From NCBI GenBank assembly GCA_026391075.1, contig JAPLES010000005.1:72660-136659 (forward strand): a stretch of 64,000 nucleotides of DNA. Reading direction: 5' to 3'. The notes under the pieces are model-generated. The model was not told where the DNA came from. It searched no databases and saw nothing but the letters and a program-made list of their open reading frames with translations. The DNA is from Bacteroidota bacterium (lineage in GTDB: Bacteria; Bacteroidota; Bacteroidia; Chitinophagales; LD1). The stretch's first letter is position 1. Every line of letters starts with the position of its first letter. Positions 6,989 to 51,967 of the stretch are shown here, piece after piece. Made by a program: the position numbers and the translations under genes.

Positions 6989-7037
6989 GCATCTTAACAT
7001 CAGCTCATTTGCTAATCGGCTAATCATCTAATTAAAC

Positions 7038-7646
7038 ATGGAAAATTTACACCAACATATCGAAGCCCTTGTTTTCAGCAGTGAAACTGCTGTTACCAAA
7101 GCTGATATTGTTCAGGTGATGAACAAAGCTTTTCCGGGAACTGTGCTCGATGAACAAATAGTGGAATCTGTTCTCAACGATTTACAGGAAAAATTCAGAA
7201 GCGATATTTTTGCGTTTGAGCTGCGAGTGATTGGTGGTGGCTATCAGTTTTTTACCAAGGCAGAATACTACGATGCGGTTTCTGTTTTCATTGGACAAAA
7301 AGAAAAGAAACGTCTTTCTACTGCGGCACTTGAAACACTTTCAATTATTGCTTACAAAGGACCTATTACAAAAGTTGAGTGCGAAAAAATTCGAGGGGTT
7401 GATTGCAATTACTCGGTAGAAAAATTATTGGAAAAAGAATTGATTGAAATTTGCGGTCGCATAGAAACCATGCCCGGCAAACCTATTGTTTACAAGGTAA
7501 CACAAACCTTTCTCGACTATTTCGGCATTAACTCTACTACCGAACTTCCAAAACTAAAAGATGTGCTTCCACAACCCGATGACAACACCGTGGGTGAAGT
7601 GCCGGAAGTAATCTCTGACCAGCCTTCCGATATCTCTCCTGAATAA
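7038..7646 (+). CDS. scpB: SMC-Scp complex subunit ScpB (segregation and condensation protein B)
   Basis: HIEALVFSSETAVTKADI, LSTAALETLSIIAYKGPITKVECEKIRGV and PGKPIVYKVTQTFLDYFGI are typical ScpB winged-helix blocks. Confidence 0.85.
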   Translation: MENLHQHIEALVFSSETAVTKADIVQVMNKAFPGTVLDEQIVESVLNDLQEKFRSDIFAFELRVIGGGYQFFTKAEYYDAVSVFIGQKEKKRLSTAALETLSIIAYKGPITKVECEKIRGVDCNYSVEKLLEKELIEICGRIETMPGKPIVYKVTQTFLDYFGINSTTELPKLKDVLPQPDDNTVGEVPEVISDQPSDISPE

Positions 7647-7763
7647 TCTTTCCGTTTGAATGAATCAATCGTCTTGAAATTTATTTTTAAATAAATTTGG
7701 TTTATAAAACAAACTACTTTACAATTGCAGTATAGTTTATCATTAAATCCAAAAACAATACCA

Positions 7764-8366
7764 ATGGAAACTTCAACCAAAGAACTTACGCCTGAAGAGA
7801 GTTTTAAAATTATTCAAACCATGATTGACACTGCCCGAAACAAAGTAGCCGAAGATGGATTTCACTTAATGCTTTGGGGAGTATTGGTGATTCTATGTTG
7901 CGTAGCCAATTATTTTCTCATACAAGTTGATGCAGGTAATATGGCAGGCATCCCTTGGTTGCTCATGCCGTGTATTGGAGTTCCCGCTGGAATACTGTAT
8001 GAAAAAAGCAGAAGCCGTCAACAACAAATAAAATCACACGCTGATTTATACGTGGCGCACATGTGGATGGCATATCTGTTTTCGTTGGTGATGATGATTG
8101 TCTTTTGCTCCTACTCACAAATTTCACCAGTGCCTTTTATTCTAATAATTACAGGTATGGCAACTTTTGCCACAGGAAAAATTTTAAAATTCACTCCTTT
8201 ATTAATTGGAGGAATTATTTTTTGGCTGAGTGCTTTACTTTGTTTGAAAGTGGTGGATGAAAAGCAATTGCTCATTCAAGCGGTAAGCACTTTCTTCGGT
8301 TACATCATTCCAGGAATTTTATTGTGGAGAAACTATAAAGCAGAAACCAATGTTCAAACCGCTTGA
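7764..8366 (+). CDS. Polytopic membrane protein, unknown function
   Basis: Four to five hydrophobic helices. The ATG at 7764 (METSTKEL) is preferred. It overlaps the downstream HTH gene by 17 nt, which suggests an operon. Confidence 0.5.
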   Translation: METSTKELTPEESFKIIQTMIDTARNKVAEDGFHLMLWGVLVILCCVANYFLIQVDAGNMAGIPWLLMPCIGVPAGILYEKSRSRQQQIKSHADLYVAHMWMAYLFSLVMMIVFCSYSQISPVPFILIITGMATFATGKILKFTPLLIGGIIFWLSALLCLKVVDEKQLLIQAVSTFFGYIIPGILLWRNYKAETNVQTA

Positions 8367-8637
8367 CCCATTATTGCATTCTGAATTGCGGTTAGCTGTA
8401 ATGTCGCTGCTGGTGAGCGTGAAGGAAGCTGAGTTTGGTTTCATCAAAGAAAAAACCGGAGCTACTGCGGGCAACCTCAGTATTCAGTTACAAAAATTAT
8501 ACGAGGCAGATTATGTAGTGCTGGAAAAATCTTTCAAAGGAAATTATCCGCTTACTACCTGCCGCATTACTAAAAAAGGAATTGATGCTTTCGAAAAATA
8601 TGTGAATGCATTAAATGCCTACATTCGACCTAAATAA
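8350..8637 (+). CDS. Winged-helix transcriptional regulator (HTH_34-like)
   Basis: LHSELRLAVMSLLVS...FGFIKEKTGATAGNLSIQLQKLYEADYVVLEK...CRITKKGIDAF matches the small winged-helix family commonly paired with a membrane protein. Confidence 0.7.
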   Translation: MFKPLDPLLHSELRLAVMSLLVSVKEAEFGFIKEKTGATAGNLSIQLQKLYEADYVVLEKSFKGNYPLTTCRITKKGIDAFEKYVNALNAYIRPK

Positions 8638-8664
8638 TTTTCATCCACTATAAACAAAAACAAA

Positions 8665-8847
8665 ATGGAAGTAATCAATAACAACAACAAAGAAAAAGAC
8701 AAAATTGGCGGATTGCTTTTTGTAGGCTGTATGTTCATAGGCATGGGCATTGGTCAATACGAAGGAGCCACAGGCACGGGAACACTCATAGGTTTAGGAA
8801 TAGGTTTTTTAGCCATGGCAATTTACCGTGTAGCCAAGAAAGATTAA
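8665..8847 (+). CDS. Small glycine-zipper membrane protein
   Basis: 60 aa with two Gly-rich hydrophobic segments (GGLLFVGCMFIGMGIG and GTLIGLGIGFLAMAI). No recognisable family. Confidence 0.35.
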   Translation: MEVINNNNKEKDKIGGLLFVGCMFIGMGIGQYEGATGTGTLIGLGIGFLAMAIYRVAKKD

Positions 8848-8849
8848 GC

Positions 8850-11117
8850 TTAGTAAGTTCTCTCTAACACAAACCAACTGAAGGCGCGCAGGTTCAACTT
8901 TACCATTGAATCGCGCAGCAGCGGATCTATCTTTTTCCAGGCGCGTTCCAAAATTGTTTTGGCTTCGCGCTCGCACAGTTCAATCGCCTTTACTTTATCG
9001 AGTAATGAAACGGCTTCAGCAATTAGTTTTAGATTTTCGGTTTTCATGCTCACAATCTGCCACAAACGAGCGCGGTCTTTTTTGTCGAGCAATGCCAACG
9101 CTTTCGCAATCGGGTAAGTAATTTTTCCCGCTGTAATGTCTTCGCCTTTTGTTTTCAGATGGTCTTTGAATCCTTTGAGGTTAAGGGTGTCGTCAATTAT
9201 CTGAAACGAAATGCCGAGCGCTTCAAAATAATTTCCCATGGCTTCTGCCTGCTCATCGGTTCCTTCGCCAAGCAAAACGCCAATGCGCGCTAAGTATGCA
9301 GCAGGAGCGGCAGACTTTAAACGGTGTGTTGCAATTACTCTCTTCTGCAAAAGTTTTGCGATCTCATCATCTTTCAATGCAGCAGGCATCATGTAATCCA
9401 ATCCGTAAATATCCATTGCCTGACCGCTATGCGATGCGCGCATCGCTTCAAAATAAGCATTGTAAATTTTCACTTTGCCTTCGGCATATTTATCAATGTG
9501 ATAAATACAATACTGACCAATGAAATATGCCGCTGTGCCGCTATTGATTGCCGTAGCTTCACCATGCACCACGTGCGCGGCAGGTCCGCCTCTGCGCACG
9601 GTAGATTTATCCTGCACATCATCCACCATCAACGAACCTACGTGCATCAACTCAGGAAGAGCGAGCCAGTCAATTGCTATTTGCGAGTTTCCGCCTACGG
9701 CATCGCAACAAGCAATGGTGGCGTAACTACGCCAGCTCTTTCCGCTGCGGTCGGTTATTTCGCGAATAGGTTTAATGAACTTTTCGATGTAAGCATTCTT
9801 GTCGAGCCCTTCGGTTAAATGTTTGTTTCCCTTTTTAGAAACCAATTCTTCAAACTTTTCCTGTGTAGGGTCGAGTGGTAAAATTTTGCGCACCGAAGCA
9901 AGGGTAGCTTTTGAAACGGCTTTCAAAAACTCTTTCATGTTGCTGCTGTTTACAAAACCGTGGCGTTCGATGTAAGCAGGTCCGCTCACCTTCTTGCCTT
10001 TCATTTTGCCGGTCACATTCATTCTTCCTTCCCAAAAAGCGGGCTTCGAAATTACGGTGGCAAATTCCTGATTAGGAAAAGCGGCATCGGCAATTACTGA
10101 CAACCCGAATTCAGAAACATCTAATTTCCATTTAGAAGGATACTCATTGAACGTGCGCGTACTCGTCCATAATTCGCCAACTGGCTTGAGTGAAAATTTT
10201 GTGGAGTAATGCCGCTTGCCTGCTTTATCAATCATGATAATGAACGAGCCGCAGTCCTCTCCTGTTTTCAAATCAATTAAATCGTAAGCAGTGAGTTCGC
10301 AGCCGTTATCGAGCTGCATCGCAATCCAATTCCACGATACATCTTTTTTGGCTTCATCTATTTGACCTTCTTTTCTTTCGGCATGACAACCAAATTCATG
10401 GTCGTACCAACCACTTGCCGATTTAATTTTCAGATTTTCTTTCTTCAACTTCAATGTTCCTTTCACTTCGCAACGCGGAATGAAATAGTAGAACATATCT
10501 TCTGCCGAAACACCGCGCACTACTCCGTTATCACCTTGACGCACGGGTGCTTTCTTCGGTTTGAAATTTATATCTACACCTAACTTCAATTCTTTGTGCG
10601 CCAGATGAAGCTGATACGAGCCGTCTTTTAATTTCTCAAAAGTATTGCCATCGTAATTCAAATTCAGTTTGGTGTAAGAAATAGTTGGTGTTTTCTTCAA
10701 CAACTCATCGGGGTAAGGCATTACACCTTTGCTCAGCATTTCAATTCCCGCTCTGCGGATGTAAGGGTCTTTTACCAGTTCGCCTTTTTTCAAACGCTCC
10801 AAACCTAGTTTTGGCGCGCGCTTATCTACCAATGAAACGGTGTGATATTTTTTCTCTTTCAAATCACTGATTCCCCAAATAACCGAGTGACCATAATCTG
10901 ATTTGCCCGTTGCTTTATCGTAACTGATGGCGTGTTGAAAAAACGAAGCAAAGAGCGAGAACTCTCTTCCGTCTTCTACTTTTATATGACTGTGCATATA
11001 CCACCATTCGGTTGAGGAAGAAAGATGAGGCAGGTCGTGAATATTTAAATCAATGGGGCCGTCTTTGGGCCAATCAGCAGCGAAGAATTTAGAGGGAGAA
11101 GAAGATTTTTTTTTCAT
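8850..11117 (-). CDS. Fusion protein with an N-terminal CrtC/AttH-like (hydroxyneurosporene synthase/lipocalin) domain and a C-terminal polyprenyl (GGPP-type) diphosphate synthase domain
   Basis: N-terminal half carries STEWWYMHSH, YYFIPRCEVKG, GWYDHEFG, WNWIAMQLDNG and FWEGRMNV..GPAYIERHGF. C-terminal half carries LMVDDVQDKSTVRRGGPAAH (first Asp-rich motif) and FQIIDDTLNLKGF...KGEDITAGKITYP (second motif, DDxxN form). It is one uninterrupted 755-codon frame. Confidence 0.8.
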   Translation of the reverse strand: MKKKSSSPSKFFAADWPKDGPIDLNIHDLPHLSSSTEWWYMHSHIKVEDGREFSLFASFFQHAISYDKATGKSDYGHSVIWGISDLKEKKYHTVSLVDKRAPKLGLERLKKGELVKDPYIRRAGIEMLSKGVMPYPDELLKKTPTISYTKLNLNYDGNTFEKLKDGSYQLHLAHKELKLGVDINFKPKKAPVRQGDNGVVRGVSAEDMFYYFIPRCEVKGTLKLKKENLKIKSASGWYDHEFGCHAERKEGQIDEAKKDVSWNWIAMQLDNGCELTAYDLIDLKTGEDCGSFIIMIDKAGKRHYSTKFSLKPVGELWTSTRTFNEYPSKWKLDVSEFGLSVIADAAFPNQEFATVISKPAFWEGRMNVTGKMKGKKVSGPAYIERHGFVNSSNMKEFLKAVSKATLASVRKILPLDPTQEKFEELVSKKGNKHLTEGLDKNAYIEKFIKPIREITDRSGKSWRSYATIACCDAVGGNSQIAIDWLALPELMHVGSLMVDDVQDKSTVRRGGPAAHVVHGEATAINSGTAAYFIGQYCIYHIDKYAEGKVKIYNAYFEAMRASHSGQAMDIYGLDYMMPAALKDDEIAKLLQKRVIATHRLKSAAPAAYLARIGVLLGEGTDEQAEAMGNYFEALGISFQIIDDTLNLKGFKDHLKTKGEDITAGKITYPIAKALALLDKKDRARLWQIVSMKTENLKLIAEAVSLLDKVKAIELCEREAKTILERAWKKIDPLLRDSMVKLNLRAFSWFVLERTY

Positions 11118-11234
11118 TAGGCAGCGTTACATTTTTTTCGAGGCTGCGATAATAGAGAATAAATAAAGTGGAGGTGCTGCTATTTTTCATCTAGTAAAGG
11201 GAGTGAACTAAGTTTTGAGTTTTATAAAACCGGA

Positions 11235-11894
11235 ATGTTTCTGATATTTCAAAAAAATAGAGTCATGGGCATGTTTAAGCGATTTCAACTTTGGAAAATT
11301 AATAAGCACCGCACCGAAGCCTTCAGTGATGGTGTGTTTGCGATTATCGTAACACTACTAGTGCTTGAAATAAAAGTGCCTCCCCTGAACGACCACACCA
11401 GTTCGCAGGAATTGCTTGACGCACTTGTTGGTTTGTCTCCCAAAATTATAAGCTGGGTGGCGAGTTTCTTTTTTATTTCGGTGATGTGGGTGCAGCATCA
11501 CAATCTGTTTCGCATGAGCGAGAAGATTGACTACGGCATGGTTTGGCTCAACGATATTTTTCTACTCTTCATTTGCTTCATGCCTTTTCCTACGGCTCTC
11601 ATGGGCGAGTATCCGCACAATCGCCCCGCGGTTTTGCTTTTTGGTTTAGATGTAACCATTGCCTCGCTGGTGCAGGTGTGGATGTATTACTACGTGGCAA
11701 AAAATTATTTGCTGAGCCACTACGACCAGAAGAATGTAATGCGCAATGTGAAGCGGTCGTTTATGCTGGCGCCTATGTTATTGATTGTGGCAACGGCCGT
11801 TTCGTTTGTAAGTTTGGTACTGCCCTATATTATTTACCTGATTGTTCCTTTCTTTTTTCTGCTGCCGTTTGATGAGGAGAAGGAAAATTTGTAA
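11235..11894 (+). CDS. TMEM175-family potassium channel (DUF1211)
   Basis: Signature RTEAFSDGVFAIIVTLLVLEIKVP plus six hydrophobic helices. Alternative starts are at 11265 and 11271. Confidence 0.75.
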   Translation: MFLIFQKNRVMGMFKRFQLWKINKHRTEAFSDGVFAIIVTLLVLEIKVPPLNDHTSSQELLDALVGLSPKIISWVASFFFISVMWVQHHNLFRMSEKIDYGMVWLNDIFLLFICFMPFPTALMGEYPHNRPAVLLFGLDVTIASLVQVWMYYYVAKNYLLSHYDQKNVMRNVKRSFMLAPMLLIVATAVSFVSLVLPYIIYLIVPFFFLLPFDEEKENL

Positions 11895-11958
11895 AACCGA
11901 AATCAATAAATTTACAACGAAATGAAATTTTTAAAATTGACCCGCTTAAATAAAGTGT

Positions 11959-12192
11959 ATGAATCCGAGAGTAGAAAAAGTAAAACCGCAGGCTGATTAT
12001 ACGTTGCACCTTGTTTTTAAAAATGGTGAGGTGAAAACTTTTGACGTAAAACCTTATCTGGAAACGGGTGTTTTTAAAGCGTTGAAAAACGCTGTGCTTT
12101 TTGCTACTGCACGTGCAGAATATGGCACCGTGGTTTGGCAAAACAATATTGACTTTGACCCTGACACTTTGTATTTAGAAGGCACCGCATAA
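11959..12192 (+). CDS. DUF2442 domain protein
   Basis: 77 aa. The pattern V..V.P..DY.L.L.F.NGE...FD..PYL and F..L.....F......G.V.W.N.IDFDPD.LY is typical of DUF2442. Confidence 0.55.
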   Translation: MNPRVEKVKPQADYTLHLVFKNGEVKTFDVKPYLETGVFKALKNAVLFATARAEYGTVVWQNNIDFDPDTLYLEGTA

Positions 12193-12200
12193 TTTTCAAA

Positions 12201-12704
12201 TCACTTCTCCGCCTTCAACGCCCTAATCATTTCTCCATAGTGCAAACCGCGCAACATGGCGTTTAGGGTTTGGGTAATTCGTTTGGCTTTGGTGGCGTCT
12301 GTTTTAGCACTGTCAATCCACTTGCTGAAATATTTTTGTTCAGAGCCCGAAAGTTTTTTGAAATTCTCCATTGCCTTCGGCTCGTCTTCTAAACAGGCAA
12401 TCATATCTTGGTTAAATTGAAAAGCCGATTCATCTAAAACCAATTGCACTTGCAGTTGCGCGCCTTTGCGTTTGCCAATAGCTTTGCGCATGGCGGCATT
12501 CAGCGGCATTATGAAATCGCCTTCGCCCATAGGTATAAGGGCAACCTGCTTAATAGCATGGTTGTCTAATTTTCCTTTTACGCGAAACGATTTTTTGAGT
12601 GGAGAAAGTTGTTGCGCCTGCTCAGCAGGAATTACAATATGAGTCCAGCCGGTTTTTTCGCCCTGCTCATCAAATTTTAAAATGGTGGTGGTGAATTTTA
12701 TCAT
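12201..12704 (-). CDS. DUF1905 / YdeI-OmpD-associated family protein
   Basis: N-terminal TGWTHIVIPAEQA...FRVKGKLD (DUF1905-like) and C-terminal FKKLSGSEQKYFSKWIDSAKTDATKAKRI (YdeI-like). Confidence 0.6.
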   Translation of the reverse strand: MIKFTTTILKFDEQGEKTGWTHIVIPAEQAQQLSPLKKSFRVKGKLDNHAIKQVALIPMGEGDFIMPLNAAMRKAIGKRKGAQLQVQLVLDESAFQFNQDMIACLEDEPKAMENFKKLSGSEQKYFSKWIDSAKTDATKAKRITQTLNAMLRGLHYGEMIRALKAEK

Positions 12705-12713
12705 GCGGTAACT

Positions 12714-14255
12714 TTATGCCGCCCAGTCTTCTCTATCCAAACTTCTAAACTGAATGGCTTCGGCAAGGTGTTCGGTTTTAATGTCGGGGCTGGCGGCTAA
12801 ATCGGCAATGGTGCGGCTTACTTTTATAATGCGGTTATAGGCACGCGCTGAAAGATTTAATTTTTGCATAGCGCGGCTCAACAAATTTTTACCGGCATCG
12901 GTAATGGTGCAAATTTCTTCCACCATTTGTGGCTCCATTTGCGCGTTAGAATACAAGTTAGCTTTTCCTTCAAAACGCTTCTCCTGAATTGCCCGTGCCT
13001 GAATAACCCGCGCACGAATACTTTCACTGGTTTCGAATTTTTTTGTGCTGGAAAGTTCGTTAAAGGCAACAGGTGTAACTTCCACATGCAAATCAATTCT
13101 ATCCATCAAAGGACCCGAAATTTTGTTCAAATATTTTTGAACAACTCCGGGAGCGCACACACATTCCTTTTCCGGATGATTATAATAACCGCACGGACAC
13201 GGATTCATAGAAGCTACTAACATAAACGAAGCCGGATAGGTAATAGAAACTTTAGAGCGCGAAATAGTCACGCATCTTTCTTCCATTGGCTGACGCATCA
13301 CTTCCAGCACGGTGCGTTTAAATTCCGGCAGCTCATCTAAAAACAAAACACCGTTATGTGCCAATGAAATCTCACCGGGTTGCGGATTACTTCCGCCCCC
13401 AACTAGCCCGGCATCGGACACCGTGTGGTGCGGAGAGCGAAACGGACGCTGATAGATAAGTGAACAATCCTTTGCAAGTTTTCCCGCAACGGAATGAATC
13501 TTAGTTGTCTCTAACGCTTCATTCAAACTAAGTGGAGGCAGAATGGTTGGGAAACGTTTTGCCAACATGGTTTTACCCGCGCCCGGTGGACCAATGAGAA
13601 TTACATTATGTCCGCCCGCAGCCGCTATTTCCAATGCGCGCTTAATATTTTCCTGCCCTTTTACATCCGAAAAATCAAATTCGTTTTTTAAAACATTGTT
13701 CTCAAATTCTGCTCGGGTATCAACTACGGTGGGTTCAATTTTTTCTTTGCCCTCTAAAAAATTAATCACTTCGCGTAAAGTTTCTACGCCTATAACTTCT
13801 ATGTTGTTTACAATGGCAGCTTCGCGCGCGTTTTGTTTTGGCAGAATAAAACCTTTGAACTTTTCTTTACGCGCTTGTATGGCAATAGGCAGCGCACCTT
13901 TAATTGGCTGAATCGTTCCATCGAGCGAAAGCTCGCCCATGATGATATACTTATCAAGCAAATCGGTTTCAATTTGCCCTGCACCGGCAAGAACACCAAT
14001 TGCCATAGTTAAATCATAAGCAGTGCCTTCCTTGCGTACATCGGCTGGCGAAAGATTGATTACCGTTCTGCGTCTCGGCATTTCAAGCCCTATATGCTTT
14101 ACGGCAGTTCCTATTCTGAACATAGATTCTTTCACTGCGTTATCGGGCAAGCCAACGGTAAAGTAATTGGGCTGACCGTTCTCAACGCTTACTTCCACTG
14201 TAATGGTAGCAGCATCAACTCCGTAAACCGCGCTTCCAAATGTTTTTACCAGCAT
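12714..14255 (-). CDS. comM: YifB/ComM family Mg-chelatase-like AAA+ ATPase
   Basis: N-terminal Lon-protease-like domain (GLPDNAVKES, GELSLDG). Walker A LIGPPGAGKTMLA and Walker B GVLFLDELPEF. A C-terminal Mg_chelatase_C block (LSARAYNRIIKVSRTIADL) is also present. Confidence 0.9.
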   Translation of the reverse strand: MLVKTFGSAVYGVDAATITVEVSVENGQPNYFTVGLPDNAVKESMFRIGTAVKHIGLEMPRRRTVINLSPADVRKEGTAYDLTMAIGVLAGAGQIETDLLDKYIIMGELSLDGTIQPIKGALPIAIQARKEKFKGFILPKQNAREAAIVNNIEVIGVETLREVINFLEGKEKIEPTVVDTRAEFENNVLKNEFDFSDVKGQENIKRALEIAAAGGHNVILIGPPGAGKTMLAKRFPTILPPLSLNEALETTKIHSVAGKLAKDCSLIYQRPFRSPHHTVSDAGLVGGGSNPQPGEISLAHNGVLFLDELPEFKRTVLEVMRQPMEERCVTISRSKVSITYPASFMLVASMNPCPCGYYNHPEKECVCAPGVVQKYLNKISGPLMDRIDLHVEVTPVAFNELSSTKKFETSESIRARVIQARAIQEKRFEGKANLYSNAQMEPQMVEEICTITDAGKNLLSRAMQKLNLSARAYNRIIKVSRTIADLAASPDIKTEHLAEAIQFRSLDREDWAA

Positions 14256-16527: not shown

Positions 16528-17544
16528 TTATTCTTCATAACCCAGTTTCTTATAATTGGGTTGCGGGCTAGTTGAATAGGCATCTATTCCGTAAGAATTA
16601 ATGGTTTTTAAAATGCTATCGATTTGTACTGTAGTAAAATTTCTTTCCCAATTCAATAATTGGTTTTCGCCAGTTAAAATTCCTGAACCGCTTTTTGTGG
16701 TAGCACTTGGCTTAAGCATTCTCGAAAAAATATCGGATGAAAAACGAATGCCCAATCGATTCGAAATTCTTTCCATCTCAAATTGTGGTCTGCTCACCAA
16801 ACTTTCATAGGATACTGTAATCCATTTTTTGTTATTGTATTCGTGGGTTAACGGTACCACGTTATTAAGTGCCCACCAATTCGCAAACATTTCTTCGCGG
16901 TTTTTTATCCCTTCAATATTTGCCCGGTACTTTTCAAAAATTTGGCTGTATCTCGACTTCTGATTCGCAAAAATACTTGCCTTTTCATCCATACCCGAAA
17001 ATGCCGAATGCCGGTATTGTGATGAAATTACAGAAAGCGGATGTCGAACCAAATAGATCGGCAGAATATTGAAGCTATCAACCAGCCAAGGCAAAAGCAG
17101 GTTAGCTCTACAAAATTTAAACATCAAACTATCTACAATTTCCGGGTTAAAATTGGCTTCAGGGTTTGCAAATATGCTCGAGTAATTTAGCTCAGAGCCG
17201 TTAAACAGCGCGTTAAAATAGTCCGTGGCTTCGGGCCAAACAGTGCCTTGAGGAATGTACGGCATATGCCCAATCTCTTCTCCAAATTTTTTCAATTTAT
17301 ACTGAGCAACTATTTTGTAGTGTAATGGTTCCCAAATAATCAATCTATTTTTTTCGCTCAGAACTTCGGCAAGCCAAGTTGTTCCTCCTCTGGGTTCACC
17401 TGATATAATCAAGTGTTTTAGATGTTCCCTAAATCGCCCTGTGCCTTCATTCTTTTTCCTGAATTTTTCTATCGCTAATTTTTGTTTGAAAATTTCGAAC
17501 TGCCGGCCATAATTCGCAAGCCTTTGTTTAAACGGAATGGACAT
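16528..17544 (-). CDS. Sulfotransferase-fold protein (PAPS-dependent type)
   Basis: A 5'-PSB-like loop GEPRGGTTWLAEVL and a 3'-PB-like LVRHPLSVISSQYR. Spot counts give about 32-35% GC. Confidence 0.5.
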   Translation of the reverse strand: MSIPFKQRLANYGRQFEIFKQKLAIEKFRKKNEGTGRFREHLKHLIISGEPRGGTTWLAEVLSEKNRLIIWEPLHYKIVAQYKLKKFGEEIGHMPYIPQGTVWPEATDYFNALFNGSELNYSSIFANPEANFNPEIVDSLMFKFCRANLLLPWLVDSFNILPIYLVRHPLSVISSQYRHSAFSGMDEKASIFANQKSRYSQIFEKYRANIEGIKNREEMFANWWALNNVVPLTHEYNNKKWITVSYESLVSRPQFEMERISNRLGIRFSSDIFSRMLKPSATTKSGSGILTGENQLLNWERNFTTVQIDSILKTINSYGIDAYSTSPQPNYKKLGYEE

Positions 17545-17737: not shown

Positions 17738-19213
17738 GTGAAAAAAATCTTCCATCTTCTTTTAGTGTTTAGTATTCCCACGGTGGTTTTGTTATTAAGC
17801 AATTGCCGAAAAGAACAATTTGGCAAAGGCAATCTTTCGTTTAGTACCGATACGCTTACGTTTGACACTGTTTTTACTTCACTTGGTTCTACCACCAAAT
17901 ATTTCAAAGTGTTTAATACCGATAAGAAGGCGGTGAAGATTTCGAATATTCATTTGGCGCATTTGGTAGGAACGCAGTTTCGCATTAGTGTAGATGGTTT
18001 GCAGGGCGATAATTTTAATGAAGTGGAAATTCCTGCAAAAGATTCGGTTTATGTTTTTGTAGAGGTAACCGTAAACCCTACCAGTGCCGCCACTCCTTTT
18101 TTAATTATTGATGATGTAGAGTTTACCGCCAATGGTGAAACTTCAACCGTTCACTTGCAGGCATTCGGGCAAAACGCACATTTTCATTATGGACAAATAA
18201 TTAACGGAGCCGAAACATGGAACAACGATTTGCCGCACGTGGTTATCAGTCACGATACCGTGCCAGGTGTATATGTAAAGTGTGGCGGTTCGCTCACGAT
18301 AAATTCGGGCTGCAAAATTTTCTTCGCTAACAACTCTGCCTTGTTTGTTGAGGGAACTTTAAATGCTAACGCTATAAGTTGGACAGACTCTATTGTTTTT
18401 CAAGGTGTGCGCCTCGAAGAATATTATAACGACAAACCCGGGCAATGGTTTGGAATTGTTTTTTTGCGAAACAAAACCTGTACACCGCAAGGAAATTTTA
18501 ATCACTGTATAGTCAATGAATCTTCGTATGGCATTTATGCTGGCGCGGGATTGAGTGTTTCTATTACTGATTATTTGGGTGCTACCGGACGACCTGAAGT
18601 AACGATTCAAAATTCGATTGTAGAAAACAGTTTGTATAACGCAGTGTATGGATTCAATGCAAAAATTTTGGCTGAGAATTCCATCTTTCATACAGCAGGC
18701 GAAAACTTAGTGAAGTTTGGTTTAGGTGGTGATTACACTTTCAATCAATGCACTATGTACAATGGCGGTTCAAAATATGTTGACCACCAAAAAGAATCGT
18801 TGTTCCTCAGCAATTTGGTTTCAGACGGAACTAACACTTACCTCGAACCACTTAAAACTACTTTTACAAATTGCGTGGTTTATGGAAGTTTAGAAAATGA
18901 AGTATCCTTCAATAATGCAGAAACGGTTTTTACCAATTTCGACAATGCGTTTCATTACTGCGATGTAAAAACCAAGCAGGACACTTTTGAATTGTACTCT
19001 AATGTTCACGACAATATTCTTTTTAATCAAGAGCCGCATTTTGTAAAAGCAGAAGAATTCAACTTTACACCGAGCGACAGCGCAGGATTTTTTTCTCCGT
19101 TGATTGATGATGCACCAAATGGTTTGTCGAATGATATTTTCGGAAAACTACGACCGGTTTCTAAAACCGCAAACACAAACAAGTTTGATCTAGGTGCGAT
19201 TGAAGCACAATAA
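17738..19213 (+). CDS. Lipoprotein with an Ig-like N-domain and beta-helix-like repeats, unknown function
   Basis: GTG start. Lipobox LLLSNC. The rest is rich in N/G/S beta-strand repeats. Confidence 0.45.
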   Translation: MKKIFHLLLVFSIPTVVLLLSNCRKEQFGKGNLSFSTDTLTFDTVFTSLGSTTKYFKVFNTDKKAVKISNIHLAHLVGTQFRISVDGLQGDNFNEVEIPAKDSVYVFVEVTVNPTSAATPFLIIDDVEFTANGETSTVHLQAFGQNAHFHYGQIINGAETWNNDLPHVVISHDTVPGVYVKCGGSLTINSGCKIFFANNSALFVEGTLNANAISWTDSIVFQGVRLEEYYNDKPGQWFGIVFLRNKTCTPQGNFNHCIVNESSYGIYAGAGLSVSITDYLGATGRPEVTIQNSIVENSLYNAVYGFNAKILAENSIFHTAGENLVKFGLGGDYTFNQCTMYNGGSKYVDHQKESLFLSNLVSDGTNTYLEPLKTTFTNCVVYGSLENEVSFNNAETVFTNFDNAFHYCDVKTKQDTFELYSNVHDNILFNQEPHFVKAEEFNFTPSDSAGFFSPLIDDAPNGLSNDIFGKLRPVSKTANTNKFDLGAIEAQ

Positions 19214-19221
19214 CAGAGTTA

Positions 19222-19345
19222 TGTCATGTTGAACAAGGCTTTGCGAAGTGAAACAAATTGTAAGTTGCTTCCCTCCGGAAACCTACAGTCAGCATGACAG
19301 TAATTTTTCAGACTTGTCATCGGGAGCCTTTGCTCAGTATGACAA
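19222..19345. repeat. Cluster of degenerate family A REP arms
   Basis: TGTCATGTTGAACAAGGCTTTGCGAAG, AGTCAGCATGACA, TTGTCATCGGGAGC and CTCAGTATGACAAAG resemble the TGTCATGCTGAGCTTGTCGAAGC / CTCAGCATGACA arms. Confidence 0.35.
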
Positions 19346-19415
19346 AGTCTCTAACAACATTTGCGTTCTAAATTCAAAGAGCTTCTTACATTTATCAAAC
19401 ACAAAATTTTTCGCC

Positions 19416-20021
19416 ATGAAAAAAATCTTCTACTCACTCCTTCTTCTTTTAAATTTCTGTTTCTTAATTCCATCAGCACAGGATGTAGCCGCACTCGAAA
19501 CTTTTGAAAAAGCCATGAAGCCCGGAGCCGTGCTTACTTACGATGTAAACATGGCCGGCAAAAAATATCAGTTCATTGCAACCATAAAAAAACTGGGTAG
19601 CGAAATTGCCTTCGATTGGAAAATGACCGAGCCTATCAATAAAACAGGAAGTGTAATCATGAGTGCCAACGCTATTTCAAAAGCCGATGGACTGTTTAAT
19701 TATTTTACCGGTGGCGAAACGAAATTGGAAAAAGAAACTTCCATGTTTATCAGCGGAAAAATTTTTAATGATGCAGCTACTACTTTTCAGGCAAGCTTGA
19801 AAGTAAACGGGCAGAGCGACACCGCTACAGTTTTGAGTAGTACCGTTGCAGAGCTAGGTGTTACGGTAAACGGAGATTTTCTTTCTATTCCCGGTATTGA
19901 ACTACAAGGCGGCAGCGAAGTGAAATATACGATTGGTGTGGTAGAAACGCAAAGATTCCCACTCATCACGCGTATGGATTTAGGTTGGACGATTCAGTTA
20001 ATGGAAATAAAAAATCCATAG
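19416..20021 (+). CDS. Secreted hypothetical protein
   Basis: The ATG at 19416 gives signal peptide MKKIFYSLLLLLNFCFLIPSAQD. The longer ORF-track start at 19248 runs through REP remnants. Confidence 0.5.
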   Translation: MKKIFYSLLLLLNFCFLIPSAQDVAALETFEKAMKPGAVLTYDVNMAGKKYQFIATIKKLGSEIAFDWKMTEPINKTGSVIMSANAISKADGLFNYFTGGETKLEKETSMFISGKIFNDAATTFQASLKVNGQSDTATVLSSTVAELGVTVNGDFLSIPGIELQGGSEVKYTIGVVETQRFPLITRMDLGWTIQLMEIKNP

Positions 20022-20114
20022 TTGTATATTCCTATACACAAGCACCGCGCGCTGGTTCATTAGTAACGTTTATAGCTGCACACTTTTTTCTTTCTTGTAG
20101 TTCGAAAACAGCGC

Positions 20115-22352
20115 ATGCTTACTTTCTTCAAAGACCTTTACTACTCTTTTCCTATTCAACTTCTGTTGTTGTCGTTTAAACGGCAGCAGTTTTTATTGCT
20201 TGCCTGGGTTTTGCTTTTTGTAATTGCTATCGGTAGGTTTGGTGCAGCAGTTGGCGCGCCTGCTGTTTTTCTCGATCCGGAATATTTGGGTGATGTTGGC
20301 TATCTAAGTTTTGCGTTAGTGGGTATTGGACTTGGTGCCATGTTTGTTACCTGGAACATTGTGATGTATATTTTGCACTCGCATCGTTTCCCTTTCATGG
20401 CGAGTTTGCAATATCCGCTTGGTATGTTTTGCCTCAATAACTTTATTATTCCACTTACTTTTTTCATTGGCTATTTCATCAGTATAACTATTTATCAAAT
20501 CAATAACGAGTACCAGAACTATCTGGAAGTAGGTACCGATTTAATTGGTGTTACAGCAGGTTTTGTATTGGTGATTCTTATCACGGCCATTTATTTCAGT
20601 TATACCAATAAAAATACCGGTAATATTTTAGAAGAAAACAAAGCCAACCTCAAAAAGAAAAAATCAATACGCAAAGTGTTTTTTAATGAAGCATTGGAAA
20701 CACAACACACCAATAGAGTTGACTACTATCTCACCAATAAATTCAATATTCGTCATACGCGTACCGTAGAGCACTACGACCCTAAATTGCATCAACTTGT
20801 TTTTCGCAGGCACCACTGGAACGCGTTTCTCGCTTCGCTGGTTGCGTTTGTTGTTTTAATCATCAGCGGATTTTTTATTGAGTACCCTTTCTTCCAAATT
20901 CCAATTGGCGCAAGCGGTCCGCTTTTTCTTTGCGTGTTGCTTTCTTTGTTCGGTTTGTTTTTGTACTGGACGGGCGGCTGGGGCACTGCAGCCATTATTG
21001 TTTTCATTTTAGTGGCGAACCAATTGACCAAGTACGATATCATGGGTTCGCAGAACCGCGCCTATGGTTTGCGTTACGATAAAGGAAATGCCCCTTACAA
21101 TCTTGAAACATTTCGTGCGCTTTCCACCGATTCGATAATTGATGAAGACCGAAAATATTTTTTACAGATTCTTGAAAACTGGAAGCGAAAAAATGTGGAT
21201 GCCCGCGCTCCGTTCAAAAAACCAAAATTGGTTTTTATCAATGTAAGCGGTGGTGGTGTGCGTGCAGGAATTTTTGTGATTTCGGTTTTACAAAACTGCG
21301 ATAGCATACTGAACGAAAAATTGTTCGACAACACTTTTCTTGCCAGCGGAGCTTCGGGTGGCATGTTCGGTATTACGTACTTGCGCGAATTGTTTTTGCA
21401 GAAAAAAAATGGATTCCCCATCAACATGCACGACCGGCAATATGCATTCAATGTTTCAAAAGATTTGCTCAACCCAATTGCACTTTCTATTTTGAGTAAC
21501 GATGCGTTATTGCCTTTTCACAAATTCAAACTTGATTCCAATACTTACTTTAAAGACCGCGGATATATTTTTGAAAAGTCCTATTGCCGCAATACAGATT
21601 TCAGATTCGACAAAAAAATTTCTGATTACAAGAGCGATGAGTTTAATGCTAAAGTTCCGTTGGTGATTTATCACACAACCGTTATGAACGACTCACGCAG
21701 ATATTTTATCAGTCCTCATCCCGTTTCGTTTCTCATGCGCCCTTATGGGAAAAACGCTGCCGATAACAATCTCGAAATTGACGGAATTGATTTTTGCAGA
21801 TTCTTCAAAAAACAAGGCGGAGAAAATTTGTTGGTTACTTCAGCCATGCGAATGGATGCTAGTTTTCCTTTCATTCTTCCCAATGCATGCTTGCCCAGCG
21901 AACCGGCTACTTATGTAATGGATGGTGGCGCGCTCGACAACACCGGAGTGGAAACTACGTTTCGGTTTTTACAAACCTTTAAAGATTGGATAAATCAAAA
22001 CACCAGCGATGTAGTGGTGATTCAAATTCGTGATGATAAAAAGCAAGATGAACCTGATGCACAGGAACAGAAAACTTTGTTTGCCCGACTCACCGACCCA
22101 CTCGGAACAGTTTATACGAACATGGATAACATGCAGGACTTTCTGATTGACCAGAAACTGAATTACATGGATGAAGAGTTGCGTGGCAAACTACACTTCG
22201 TTTTTTTTGAATACACCAGTGAGAAGAAAGATGATAAAGCCGCCATGAGTATGCACATCAGCTCGCGCGATAAAAATGACATTCTTCGCTCGCTAAACAG
22301 AGCAAACAACGTAGTGGCTTTCAACAAATTGCAAAAGCTACTAGCAGACTAA
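20115..22352 (+). CDS. Patatin-like phospholipase with a large N-terminal polytopic membrane domain
   Basis: About 330 aa with six or more hydrophobic helices. The patatin motifs follow: VSGGGVRAG (oxyanion GGGxR), SGASGGM (GxSxG) and MDGGALDNTGV (catalytic Asp DGG). Confidence 0.8.
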   Translation: MLTFFKDLYYSFPIQLLLLSFKRQQFLLLAWVLLFVIAIGRFGAAVGAPAVFLDPEYLGDVGYLSFALVGIGLGAMFVTWNIVMYILHSHRFPFMASLQYPLGMFCLNNFIIPLTFFIGYFISITIYQINNEYQNYLEVGTDLIGVTAGFVLVILITAIYFSYTNKNTGNILEENKANLKKKKSIRKVFFNEALETQHTNRVDYYLTNKFNIRHTRTVEHYDPKLHQLVFRRHHWNAFLASLVAFVVLIISGFFIEYPFFQIPIGASGPLFLCVLLSLFGLFLYWTGGWGTAAIIVFILVANQLTKYDIMGSQNRAYGLRYDKGNAPYNLETFRALSTDSIIDEDRKYFLQILENWKRKNVDARAPFKKPKLVFINVSGGGVRAGIFVISVLQNCDSILNEKLFDNTFLASGASGGMFGITYLRELFLQKKNGFPINMHDRQYAFNVSKDLLNPIALSILSNDALLPFHKFKLDSNTYFKDRGYIFEKSYCRNTDFRFDKKISDYKSDEFNAKVPLVIYHTTVMNDSRRYFISPHPVSFLMRPYGKNAADNNLEIDGIDFCRFFKKQGGENLLVTSAMRMDASFPFILPNACLPSEPATYVMDGGALDNTGVETTFRFLQTFKDWINQNTSDVVVIQIRDDKKQDEPDAQEQKTLFARLTDPLGTVYTNMDNMQDFLIDQKLNYMDEELRGKLHFVFFEYTSEKKDDKAAMSMHISSRDKNDILRSLNRANNVVAFNKLQKLLAD

Positions 22353-39436: not shown

Positions 39437-39552
39437 AATGGTACTATTTTTTACTGAGCGAAAGATATCCTTTCTTTTGAAAGTGCAAACTATTCGTTCG
39501 TTAGAAAACGATCGCTTGACCACTCTTGCTTAAATTTTACTTTCGCCACCGT

Positions 39553-40491
39553 ATGATAAATTTCATTTCACCTGCATCGGGAGCAAAACTTACACTACAG
39601 AACAAGGAATTGATTGCTGATAACGGAGAAAAATTTCCCGTGGTGAATGGTGTGCCGCGTTTTGTGCCGGCCGATAATTATGCCAGTGCTTTTGGTTTGC
39701 AATGGAAGAATTTTGCCAAAACACAATTAGATAGTTTTAACGGAACCAAAATTTCGCAAGAGCGCTTAGAGCGTTGTTTGGGGTTTTCGATAGAACAACT
39801 GAAAGGAAAAAATTTACTGGAAGTAGGAAGCGGTGCAGGAAGATTTACCGAACTTTTTATGAAAGGTGGAGCACATGTGCATACGATTGATTTAAGCGTG
39901 GCTGTAGAAGTGAACAAAGAAAACATAGGCAATGCCGAAAATTATGCGGTAGCACAAGCGAGTGTTTATGAACTTCCGTTTCCGAAGCAAAGTTTTGATG
40001 TGGTTATTTGTTTGGGTGTAATTCAACATACACCTTCGAGCGAAAAAACGATTGATGCCTTATGGCAAATGGTTAAGCCCGGTGGTTTGCTGGTGATTGA
40101 CCATTACATTTGGCGATTGGGTTATTATTTTAATCCCGCTACGTACTGGCGATTGGTGCTGAAAGAAATGAAGCCTGCTACTTCAAAAAAAATTGTGGAT
40201 GTACTTACCGCTGTTTTCTTCCCGTTTCACTGGGCATTTAGAAATGTGCCAGCTTTGGATTGGTTAGTAAAAAGAGTTTCACCTGTTATGTGCTATATGC
40301 AATTACATCCTGAAATGAGTAAGCAGGAACATTATGAATGGGCACGTTTAGACACTAACGATTCACTGACCGATTACTATAAACACTTGCGCACAACCGC
40401 GCAAATAAAAACCGAGTTAAAAAAAATAGGCGGCAAAAATATTTGGATAAATGAAGGTGGAAATGGAGTGGAAGCGAGATGTGAGAAATAA
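39553..40491 (+). CDS. Class I SAM-dependent methyltransferase with a Trm112-like N-terminal segment
   Basis: Motif I LLEVGSGAGRFT. N-terminal KELIADNGEKFPVVNGVPRFV. The ATG at 39553 is preferred over the TTG at 39526. Confidence 0.72.
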   Translation: MINFISPASGAKLTLQNKELIADNGEKFPVVNGVPRFVPADNYASAFGLQWKNFAKTQLDSFNGTKISQERLERCLGFSIEQLKGKNLLEVGSGAGRFTELFMKGGAHVHTIDLSVAVEVNKENIGNAENYAVAQASVYELPFPKQSFDVVICLGVIQHTPSSEKTIDALWQMVKPGGLLVIDHYIWRLGYYFNPATYWRLVLKEMKPATSKKIVDVLTAVFFPFHWAFRNVPALDWLVKRVSPVMCYMQLHPEMSKQEHYEWARLDTNDSLTDYYKHLRTTAQIKTELKKIGGKNIWINEGGNGVEARCEK

Positions 40492-40497
40492 AAGAGC

Positions 40498-41310
40498 ATG
40501 AGTAACACAACAGACAAAGCAGGCGAAGTTTACTGGACAAAAGTTTGGAGCGAATCTGCTTTGCCTCCCAAAATTGATGTGCACGGTAAAAGCATTAACG
40601 ATTATCCTTATCGTATGTTGCACAAATTTTATCAGCAACTTTTTGATGGAAAGAATACGAAGCAAATGAGTTTGCTTGAAATTGGTTGTGGCAACTCTGT
40701 ATTCATGACCTACTTTGCCGAGGAGTTTGGTTTTAAGGTTGCGGGTCTTGATTATTCGCAACTCGGCTGTGAGCAATCGAAACAAATTTTGAAACGCGAT
40801 GGTATTGAAGGCGATATTTTTTTAGGTGATGCCTTTGCCCCTTCTGCCGATTTGCTTAATAAGTATGACGTAGTTTGTTCCTTTGGTGTGGCAGAACATT
40901 TTACCGATACAGCAAAAGCACTCGAAGCATTTTCAAAATTTGTAAAGCCCGGTGGCATCCTTATTACATCGGTTCCAAATCTTGCGGGCGTTACTGGTTT
41001 GTTACAAAAGAACATGAACAAGCCTGTGTATGATATTCATGTGCCTATGGATAAATCGTATTTGGAAGGCGCAATTGCAAAAGCAGGATTGAAATTACTA
41101 AGCAGCACTTATTTTGTGAGCATCAGTTTTGCGGTAACGCTCGAAGGCATAAATGGAGAAACAATTCCTTTCTTCTTGCCGAAAAAAGTATTTCTTAAAT
41201 CTATCCGCTACTTTTCAAAACTTGTTTGGATGGCTGAAGAGTTGGTTGGTTTACTACCGCTGACCAAAACTTTTTCTGCAGGTATAATTACTGCAGCAGA
41301 AAAAAGGTAG
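40498..41310 (+). CDS. Class I SAM-dependent methyltransferase
   Basis: Motif I LLEIGCGNSVF, with post-I GLDYS and VVCSFGVAEHF. It starts 6 nt after the previous methyltransferase. Confidence 0.72.
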   Translation: MSNTTDKAGEVYWTKVWSESALPPKIDVHGKSINDYPYRMLHKFYQQLFDGKNTKQMSLLEIGCGNSVFMTYFAEEFGFKVAGLDYSQLGCEQSKQILKRDGIEGDIFLGDAFAPSADLLNKYDVVCSFGVAEHFTDTAKALEAFSKFVKPGGILITSVPNLAGVTGLLQKNMNKPVYDIHVPMDKSYLEGAIAKAGLKLLSSTYFVSISFAVTLEGINGETIPFFLPKKVFLKSIRYFSKLVWMAEELVGLLPLTKTFSAGIITAAEKR

Positions 41311-48234: not shown

Positions 48235-48325
48235 TACGGGATTTGATATTGAAAAATCTTTTGTAAAAAAGTTCATTTCATTCCCCTATCACAGCATTGA
48301 TCGAATGCTTCGCTTACTAAAAAAT

Positions 48326-49627: not shown

Positions 49628-49674
49628 AACAGGAAGTAGATTCATTAAAAGCATTTTGATTTTTGACAGCAGAA

Positions 49675-51870: not shown

Positions 51871-51967
51871 CGTTTTTAAAACTTAATAAACGTAGTAAGA
51901 TCGTTGTAAGCCTTTGTTTAAAAATTAACCTGCCAACGCGTTTTAGTAATTCTTTATTTCTTTGATT

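Follow-up and report, generated by a model that had tools for sequence, protein, structure and literature searches.

A widespread bacterial fusion of an AttH/CrtC-type beta-barrel with a trans-prenyl diphosphate synthase: a candidate bifunctional terpenoid enzyme

A 64,000-nucleotide (nt) stretch of a Bacteroidota genome (order Chitinophagales; assembly GCA_026391075.1, contig JAPLES010000005.1, positions 72,660 to 136,659; hereafter the window, whose own numbering is used below) carries one gene that joins an AttH/CrtC-type beta-barrel to a trans-prenyl diphosphate synthase. Judging from conserved residues and homology, we lean modestly toward the view that the fusion protein is a cytoplasmic bifunctional enzyme, which would make geranylgeranyl diphosphate (GGPP) and then hydrate or cyclise it by acid catalysis. 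The fusion is best classed as a variation on bifunctional prenyltransferase fusions and on the AttH/CrtC hydratases, and one that is widespread, strongly constrained and experimentally accessible. A preliminary description of the window, made from its letters alone, knew of no characterised protein with this architecture; our full-text searches likewise found no paper describing or characterising it, although coverage of subscription journals was partial and absence there is not proof.

The preliminary description had placed both domains in a single open reading frame (ORF) without naming the strand. Its coordinates (8850-11117) are exact; the strand is minus, and the ORF runs uninterrupted for 755 amino acids (aa) (Table 1). 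The two halves exceed the Pfam cut-offs for just the families against which it had proposed to check them: PF07143 (CrtC; E 1.7e-18, 68.3 bits against a cut-off of 22.5) and PF17186 (Lipocalin_9; E 7.8e-20, above its curated cut-off) in the N-terminal half, and PF00348 (polyprenyl_synt; E 4.6e-44, 150.9 bits against 27) in the C-terminal half. Each sequence block that it quoted is also there, in the order and spacing it gave: STEWWYMHSH (aa 35-44), (F)YYFIPRCEVKG (aa 209-220), GWYDHEFG (aa 236-243), WNWIAMQL (aa 262-269), FWEGRMNV (aa 361-368) and GPAYIERHGF (aa 379-388) in the barrel, then the first Asp-rich region LMVDDVQDKSTVRRGGPAAH (aa 496-515) and FQIIDDTLNL (aa 638-647) in the synthase. 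No NCBIfam model attains its cut-off for the 755-aa protein, the best being archaeal IdsA and a family-2 encapsulin cargo prenyltransferase, and the N-terminal half gives just two non-significant NCBIfam matches (E ~0.06-0.07). We discount an antisense ORF at 9324-9818 (plus strand, 164 aa, GTG start) as spurious, because substitutions follow the frame of the minus strand.

An AlphaFold2 model built from a 39-sequence alignment (mean predicted local distance difference test score, pLDDT, 89.2; predicted template modelling score, pTM, 0.86) has a beta-rich body at aa 36-386, two helices at 394-412 and 419-426, and an all-helical body up to aa 751. The high pTM for a two-domain chain, together with the conservation of the linker, argues for a fixed arrangement of the two domains relative to each other, as far as a predicted model can tell. 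The lack of a signal peptide, already remarked in the preliminary description, agrees with our inspection: nowhere in the first 60 residues do more than 4 hydrophobic aa follow one another. A cytoplasmic location is further indicated because the synthase half uses isopentenyl diphosphate (IPP).

The fusion belongs to a genuine family. The preliminary description had warned of a stop or frameshift that would split the gene in two; a frameshift or chimeric assembly is rejected, given hundreds of independent full-length homologues and a dN/dS ratio of about 0.02 in both halves. Among 5.8 billion protein clusters searched, at least 120 clusters (90% identity) carry the identical three domains full-length at 55-98% identity, under the database names 'polyprenyl synthetase family protein' or 'geranylgeranyl pyrophosphate synthase/predicted secreted hydrolase', and among the GTDB species, each represented by one genome, at least 126 encode a relative. 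From these we retained 80 genomic loci, in which the query is mostly or wholly covered except for a few at contig ends. When the N-terminal half alone served as query in an exhaustive search, 143 representatives (50%-identity clusters) fell below E 1e-30; the synthase half is also present in 85 of the best 150 N-half representatives, down to ~28% N-half identity. Two close relatives (L001 and L002) are 97-99% identical to the window protein at a DNA identity of just ~90%, and dN/dS against them is 0.016-0.019 in the N-terminal domain, 0.03-0.05 in the linker and 0.014-0.030 in the C-terminal domain. The gene is strongly constrained by selection.

Three clades and a singleton (L052) account for the 76 full-length members taken from genomes: one clade of Chitinophagales/Saprospiraceae (55 members, the window's included), one of Myxococcota (14), and a mixed clade of six with Telluribacter humicola, Iningainema tapete, Chitinophagaceae and others. 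A survey of the architecture across Bacteroidota had been suggested; it is indeed found there, but the family is not restricted to that phylum, with further hosts among Myxococcota, cyanobacteria and Streptomyces, a probable Legionella, an archaeal-looking contig, and eukaryote-like proteins with a PX domain. Cultured carriers include Telluribacter humicola KCTC 42819, Tolypothrix sp. PCC 7601 and PCC 7712, Iningainema tapete BLCC-T55 and Streptomyces canus NBC_01585.

Some of these hosts deserve separate mention. On the 3.99-Mb contig UGOW01000001.1 (locus L087), a 738-aa member at 7001-9217 stands directly after a resistance-nodulation-division (RND) efflux operon and beside a WipA-type effector phosphatase, because of which we take the host to be probably Legionella, an odd setting for an enzyme of terpenoid metabolism whose synthase core resembles eukaryotic ones. 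In GCA_964520075.1 (locus L084), a gene for family 1 glycosyltransferase (GT1), barrel and synthase at 10001-13237 has archaeal-looking neighbours (a PDCD5-type dsDNA-binding protein, RPA/CDC24-type OB folds, RNase HII and DUF7411), and thus the family seems to cross domains of life. The metagenomic protein P0162, which looks eukaryotic, has a phosphoinositide-binding PX domain before the barrel and a weakly matching synthase; P0126, P0204, P0213, P0215, P0227, P0235, P0238, P0253 and P0268 are further metagenomic proteins noted here. A metagenomic set of 750-865 aa joins the same barrel to another C-terminal region of ~330-400 aa, which is Ala-rich and has neither a Pfam match nor Asp-rich motifs.

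That the last ~330 aa form a complete trans-prenyl diphosphate synthase, as had been proposed, is borne out by the Pfam match and by the presence of all catalytic motifs. The window synthase has K460, R463, D499, D500, D503, R508, R509, K601, D642, D643 and K665. Residues were counted across 69 members of the wide family: these Asp, Arg and Lys residues are kept in at least 61, and the elements G-K-x-W-R, DDxxD, RRG, K601, DDxx(N/D) and K..GK in 58-69, most of them in at least 65. This retention of catalytic and substrate-binding residues leads us to conclude that the C-terminal domain should be an active chain-elongating trans-prenyl diphosphate synthase. Foldseek aligns it with many structures of GGPP synthase (GGPPS), OPPS and other prenyl synthases at target TM-scores of 0.75-0.86, with an identity of ~21-26% to archaeal and eukaryotic GGPPS.

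The product of this domain is probably the C20 compound GGPP, to go by its chain-length residues. Type III GGPPS are defined by small residues at positions -4 and -5, and in the yeast enzyme Tyr107, Phe108 and His139 halt elongation at C20 (PMC9729869). The window domain shares with the human (2q80) and yeast (2dh4) enzymes a first motif (here DDVQD) without insertion, small residues at -4 and -5 (G494 and S495), a floor of a Tyr-Phe pair and a His (Y531, F532 and H563, matched to the yeast residues by motif through the human GGPPS alignment and not by a direct printed alignment) and a DDxxN second motif (DDTLN). When a 95-aa query spanning the chain-length region was compared with solved structures, all 19 matches at E<=1e-6 were either to GGPPS of human or yeast or to the prenyltransferase part of fungal prenyltransferase-terpene synthase (PT-TS) chimeras. 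The preliminary description's label of a eukaryote-like type III synthase therefore suits the chain-length region but not the domain as a whole: over its full length, plant type-II and archaeal enzymes score equal to human GGPPS, with E-values within one to five orders of magnitude, and relative to human GGPPS there is an insertion at about aa 575-625. Its DDxxN motif, likewise, is present in the window protein but is not fixed in the family, the fifth residue being N in 46 of the 69 members and D in 19. Nor is the domain an orthologue of a curated NCBIfam GGPPS family (IdsA_Meth 133.6 against a cut-off of 468, GGPP_syn 87.4 against 500, CrtE 69 against 460).

The N-terminal half finds its best Foldseek matches in AttH (2ich, target TM-score 0.83) and kievitone hydratase (7a0q, 0.79, identity ~15%), and a profile made from 15 diverse N-terminal domains retrieves both by hmmsearch (E 2.9e-34 and 6.1e-19). 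The W-x-D-[HR]-[EQ]-[FW] motif of the AttH/kievitone hydratase superfamily is aligned and conserved, and the position of D239 within it is acidic in 68 of the 69 wide-family members. Mutagenesis of CrtC showed H239, W241, Y266 and D268 to be essential (R. gelatinosus numbering), with D268 the proposed proton donor (PMC4717167); these residues lie in the motifs 'RHRWGPIAP..RIEV' and 'GHAYLDSNEG' (PMC4717167 supplement), and 'SGWYDHEFG' of the window protein aligns with the latter such that D239 corresponds to D268 and W237 to Y266. The Lipocalin_9 part contains W262-N-W264, F361-W-E-G364 and E384-R385. In the 39 closer relatives (56-88% identity), E37, H44, E206, H240, E241, N263, Q268, E363, E384 and R385 are invariant polar residues.

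Fold, profile and motif thus agree with membership in the AttH/kievitone hydratase superfamily, the secreted location being the one trait of that group that we did not find. As for CrtC (EC 4.2.1.131), the PF07143 match is present, and the essential-residue set and the carotenoid gene surroundings are not. By these homologies the N-terminal half is a member of the AttH/kievitone hydratase/CrtC superfamily and not a CrtC orthologue, so that of the earlier wording, a CrtC/AttH-type hydratase domain, the relationship to PF07143/PF17186 and to 2ich and 7a0q holds, but CrtC orthology does not. What all characterised relatives have in common, CrtC and kievitone hydratase as well as the archaeal hydroxy-GDGT synthase, is that they add water to an isoprene C=C bond and so form a tertiary alcohol.

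The surroundings of the gene in its relatives bear on what becomes of the product. There is no universal neighbour; the 391 neighbours at the 80 loci fall into 258 distinct families. Among the 142 families that were scanned (114 were not, and families seen once are not listed), glycosyltransferase families are the commonest Pfam matches as a raw count, and no carotenoid family recurs. A glycosyltransferase gene adjoins the fusion gene at six loci (L047, L060, L064, L066, L069 and L079), that of L047 being a GT1 directly upstream. In the mixed clade, for example in Telluribacter humicola, the gene is part of an operon for a GT28-like glycosyltransferase, the fusion, an LMF1-like membrane protein, an FkbM methyltransferase and two cytochromes P450 (P450s). 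The distant member P0122 is surrounded by five S-adenosylmethionine (SAM) methyltransferase genes (L086, 641-10402), one of them CMAS-like, a type that modifies lipid double bonds. The Streptomyces canus member (747 aa) adjoins an ATP-binding cassette (ABC) transporter, and ABC or RND exporters adjoin the genes of S. canus, L088 and L087.

Other relatives carry such partners within the same chain. P0176 and P0194 are GT1, barrel and synthase in one protein; P0230, P0168 and P0179 are ~1,500 aa long, P0230 with sulfotransferase, GT1, barrel and synthase, and the other two with sulfotransferase, barrel and synthase as detected by Pfam. A 1,509-aa plasmid protein of Tolypothrix sp. PCC 7601 (sulfotransferase-GT-AttH-synthase) is 48.5% identical to P0230 full-length, and its gene is flanked by those for a DevB-like membrane-fusion protein, devC and an ABC ATPase, that is, a DevBCA-type exporter. 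Conversely, P0121 represents a split form: the AttH barrel is a protein by itself, and after its gene come one for a 268-aa synthase and one for a P450. Taken together, the fusions, the split form and the gene neighbourhoods indicate that the two halves act in one pathway, and make channelling of the C20 chain towards a hydrated or cyclised terpenoid much more plausible. The neighbourhoods and fusions of the relatives say that the product of the barrel-synthase pair is often glycosylated, sulfated, oxidised, methylated and exported.

Three observations on these loci stand apart. The 760-aa LMF1/LMF1_C (lipase-maturation-factor) protein is encoded right after the fusion in the GT/P450 operon (L060, 12243-14525; also L066 and L069). 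In Tolypothrix (L089/L091, NZ_CP064882.1), two IS701 copies and a TnsA-containing, Tn7-like element lie between the four-domain gene with its Dev exporter and cysC plus two type I polyketide synthase genes, and this cluster may have been split by transposition. In six Myxococcota loci (L062, 12362-12976, and five others), a conserved protein of ~200 aa without a Pfam match adjoins the fusion, directly downstream in five and upstream on the opposite strand in L080.

The simplest mechanism matching the homology, we infer, is GGPP synthesis followed by acid-catalysed addition of water by the barrel. The conserved catalytic residues suggest that the C-terminal domain, dependent on Mg2+, would condense IPP with dimethylallyl diphosphate (DMAPP), geranyl diphosphate (GPP) or farnesyl diphosphate (FPP), and the type-III-like floor suggests a stop at C20. 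The barrel, oriented by the conserved helical linker, would then take up the prenyl chain, as its homologues lead one to expect, and D239, the buried acid in W-Y-D-H-E-F, would generate a tertiary carbocation. Water would quench this cation, with or without prior ring closure, to give a terpenoid tertiary alcohol. To go by the relatives alone, the hydroxyl could serve as the handle for glycosylation, sulfation, oxidation or methylation, before export. The window's own fusion gene is a solitary one among housekeeping genes; its product is probably a C20 isoprenoid with a hydroxyl group, either a lipid in its own right or the precursor of one, and genes for any tailoring enzymes would have to lie elsewhere.

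Several facts weigh against hydration or cyclisation of GGPP by the barrel. CrtC Tyr266 is replaced by W237 (Trp in 66 of the 69 members) and the CrtC H-x-W of 'RHRWGPIAP' has no secure counterpart in 'EDMFYYFIP', so that the catalytic machinery is only partly shared with the sole relative that has been mutagenised; AttH (2ich), for its part, has no demonstrated activity, a role in lipid metabolism having been proposed. The tailoring genes come from members just 28-50% identical, while the window and most Chitinophagales and Myxococcota loci have no biosynthetic neighbours. The C20 length is deduced from residues, and fungal prenyltransferase domains of the same type yield C20 to C30. The barrel could also act on a later pathway intermediate instead of the prenyl diphosphate. 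Finally, hydrating a distal double bond only would leave the diphosphate in place, a poor fit with glycosyltransferase, sulfotransferase and exporter partners. These partners fit better if the product of the barrel has lost its diphosphate, and for this reason we keep open a second, sharper reading of the barrel, as a non-canonical, scaffold-forming terpene synthase, which we hold to be possible though doubtful. It would remove or ionise the diphosphate, or start a class-II-like protonation cascade on GGPP, and free a diphosphate-free acyclic or cyclic terpene alcohol, to be glycosylated, sulfated or oxidised and then exported. The barrel does fill the slot usually held by a terpene synthase in operons and multi-domain fusions that contain no classical synthase or cyclase; a glycosyltransferase, a sulfotransferase, P450s and a glycolipid-type exporter are chemically sensible only for a diphosphate-free amphiphile; and the domain order, with the modifier N-terminal and the prenyltransferase C-terminal, mirrors that of the fungal PT-TS, whose synthase core is the most similar. 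However, neither cyclisation nor diphosphate cleavage is known for any member of the AttH/CrtC/kievitone hydratase group, the sequence shows no evident Mg2+-binding or DxDD-type motif, and unspecific phosphatases could strip the diphosphate instead. The sole hint of C-O-P chemistry in the fold, the 25-phosphosteroid lyase (9fzn/9g4c/9g2i), was rejected as a mechanistic precedent: the Foldseek match is weak (E ~6e-9, target TM-score 0.49, root-mean-square deviation ~11 A) and the family's sequence profile does not retrieve it. We propose only tentatively that the AttH-like barrel is an unrecognised, metal-independent terpene synthase/cyclase fold that takes GGPP straight from its fusion partner and sets free an alcohol, the aglycone of a widespread and hitherto overlooked class of terpenoid lipids that are glycosylated or sulfated and exported. 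If so, such lipids would be made across several bacterial phyla, and apparently by archaea and protists too, with the whole pathway in one four-domain protein (sulfotransferase, glycosyltransferase, barrel and synthase) in some organisms.

Two further readings are less likely. A fusion of CrtE with CrtC, in which the synthase feeds phytoene formation, the barrel hydrates psi-end groups many steps later and glycosyltransferases make carotenoid glycosides, seems to us improbable. Pfam does label the N-terminal half CrtC, and the catalytic Asp is conserved; as general background, GT1 includes carotenoid glucosyltransferases, many of the host phyla make 1'-hydroxy or glycosylated carotenoids, and non-consecutive carotenoid enzymes can be fused, as in fungal CrtYB. 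Yet there is no phytoene synthase, desaturase or lycopene cyclase in the 64-kb window and none recurs among the 142 scanned neighbour families (singletons not listed), so that we reject a carotenoid gene cluster both here and as a recurrent feature of the relatives. The replaced Tyr266, the unrecognisable His/Trp pair and the want of a significant NCBIfam match for the N-terminal half also speak against it, as do the partners (P450s, an FkbM methyltransferase, an LMF1-like protein, a sulfotransferase and DevBCA), which do not make up a set for tailoring carotenoids, and the occurrence of the fusion in the probable Legionella and on the archaeal-looking contig. Nor do we give much credence to a non-catalytic barrel that would only bind the synthase's hydrophobic product, pass it to membrane enzymes, or tune its release or chain length. 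The calycin/lipocalin fold is classically a ligand carrier, and the standing of AttH would suit this idea; it leaves unexplained, however, the partner enzymes that use a hydroxyl, the many further polar residues invariant in the 39 closer relatives, and a buried acidic residue kept within an aromatic motif in 68 of 69 members, at the site of the CrtC catalytic Asp and the kievitone hydratase motif.

Comparison with known systems places the fusion between several of them. The preliminary description was reminded of fungal PT-TS chimeras with a different partner domain, and this is apt: order and prenyltransferase match, and the partner is a beta-barrel. Like the window protein, PaFS (fusicoccadiene synthase), variediene synthase and PvCPS are one chain with the modifier N-terminal and the GGPP-forming prenyltransferase C-terminal, and it is their prenyltransferase domains that, with human and yeast GGPPS, best match the chain-length region; their downstream products can be glycosides, fusicoccin being an example. 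They differ in that the partner is an alpha-helical class I or beta-gamma class II cyclase rather than an all-beta AttH/CrtC-type barrel, in that the linker is long and flexible rather than short, conserved and structured, and in that they occur in fungi, whereas the present family is found in bacteria and probably also in archaea and protists. Neither Pfam nor the fold comparison matched the barrel to a terpene synthase, and the window protein is thus not itself a PT-TS.

Kievitone hydratase and CrtC share with the N-terminal half the fold (7a0q) and the W/Y-x-D motif with its proposed general acid, and the expected common reaction is Markovnikov hydration of an isoprene C=C bond to a tertiary alcohol. 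Both are stand-alone proteins, the former secreted and the latter encoded in crt/photosynthesis clusters, whereas the window domain is cytoplasmic by prediction, fused to a synthase and without CrtC Tyr266. The archaeal hydroxy-glycerol dialkyl glycerol tetraether (hydroxy-GDGT) synthase, Hgs, belongs to the AttH family and adds water across double bonds in the isoprenoid chains of membrane lipids (bioRxiv 10.1101/2025.10.20.683597), and the AttH family therefore acts on isoprenoid lipids besides carotenoids. Unlike the window protein, Hgs stands alone with no fusion to a prenyl synthase, is paired with a radical-SAM desaturase and acts on mature tetraether lipids.

The window gene is monocistronic, divergent from a TMEM175-like gene at 11235 and convergent with an HTH_34 gene ending at 8637. 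Its neighbours encode an aldehyde dehydrogenase, ATP synthase gamma, ScpB, a membrane protein with a winged-helix regulator, the TMEM175-like channel, a DUF1905/OmdA protein, a YifB-type ATPase, a hemolysin-III and a beta-lactamase-fold protein; UvrA is among the remaining genes. The preliminary description had noted no crt gene or classical cyclase within at least 8 kb on either side, and this extends to the whole 64-kb window, which has no carotenoid, terpene synthase/cyclase or prenyl-related gene (crtB, crtI, crtD, lycopene cyclase). Rfam gave no match in 8000-12000, and a scan for promoters and terminators around the gene gave no more than chance level. Beyond 20% DNA divergence the fusion gene alone still aligns with the loci of relatives, and its flanks have thus been shuffled.

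The alignment with the 97%-identical L002 lacks a sulfotransferase gene (16528-17544, minus strand), the membrane-protein/HTH_34 pair (7621-8673) and the TMEM175-like gene (11219-11913), and the immediate surroundings are therefore strain-variable. This sulfotransferase was rejected as a partner, being unrelated to the fused sulfotransferases and without a homologue in any of the loci analysed, that of L002 included. Elsewhere in the window, Pfam gives nothing at E<=1e-5 for three successive plus-strand ORFs (17738-22352; 491, 257 and 745 aa); a pair of neighbouring SAM methyltransferase genes (39526-41310, plus strand), the second with a weak CMAS match, lies 28 kb from the fusion, and no link is claimed; a plus-strand glycan-degradation block (46033-54256) encodes GH92, GH94-like, GH3 and GH92 proteins; and a 1,000-aa SprB-repeat protein (57413-60415, minus strand) has a CHU_C type IX secretion system (T9SS) signal. 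Several other proteins have a Por_Secre_tail T9SS sorting domain; such T9SS and glycan features are typical of Bacteroidota.

Table 1. Features of the fusion gene, in window coordinates
Feature	Position (nt)	Strand	Basis or remark
Complete two-domain gene	8850-11117	-	ATG at 11115-11117, TAA at 8850-8852
CrtC N-terminal lipocalin domain PF07143, aa 36-243; first half of AttH-like double barrel	10389-11012	-	Pfam; 2ich/7a0q fold match; profile match
E206-D-M-F-Y-Y-F-I-P214 block, almost invariant	10476-10502	-	At site of CrtC H239-x-W241; exact register uncertain
W237-Y-D239-H-E-F242	10392-10409	-	D239 aligned to CrtC Asp268 ('AYLDSNEG') and to Asp of WYDRQW in kievitone hydratase
Lipocalin_9 PF17186, aa 257-385; second half of AttH-like barrel	9963-10349	-	Pfam
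Inter-domain linker, aa 391-440; conserved, structured	9798-9947	-	Two predicted helices; block-mean pLDDT ~86-92
Polyprenyl synthetase domain PF00348, aa 447-705	9003-9779	-	Pfam; helical domain extends to aa 755 (nt 8853)
Chain-length region and first Asp-rich motif, G494-S495-L-M-V-D499-D500-V-Q-D503	9609-9638	-	Residues -5/-4 small, no insertion
Y531-F532	9522-9527	-	Aligned to Y-F pair of human GGPPS; yeast Tyr107/Phe108 by motif correspondence
H563	9429-9431	-	Aligned to His of 'LHQGQGLDIY' of human GGPPS; yeast His139 by motif correspondence
Second Asp-rich motif D642-D-T-L-N646 (DDxxN)	9180-9194	-	Alignment to human GGPPS

To our knowledge, bifunctional prenyltransferase-cyclase enzymes have been described mostly in fungi, and the cyclase domain in them is alpha-helical in every case. 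If the fusion protein does make GGPP and then hydrate or cyclise it, it would be a new bacterial solution that couples chain synthesis to a protonation/hydration-type beta-barrel, and it would provide the first direct link of the AttH/'predicted secreted hydrolase' family, which is large and mostly without assigned function, to prenyl diphosphate supply. This proposal is testable, since cultured carriers exist and the enzyme is predicted to be soluble and to require only IPP and DMAPP; biocatalysis, moreover, has a demand for enzymes that selectively hydrate or cyclise unactivated isoprenoid double bonds. For the biology of the family, the findings point to a possible class of terpenoid (sulfo)glycolipids, so far undescribed, that would have exporters of their own.

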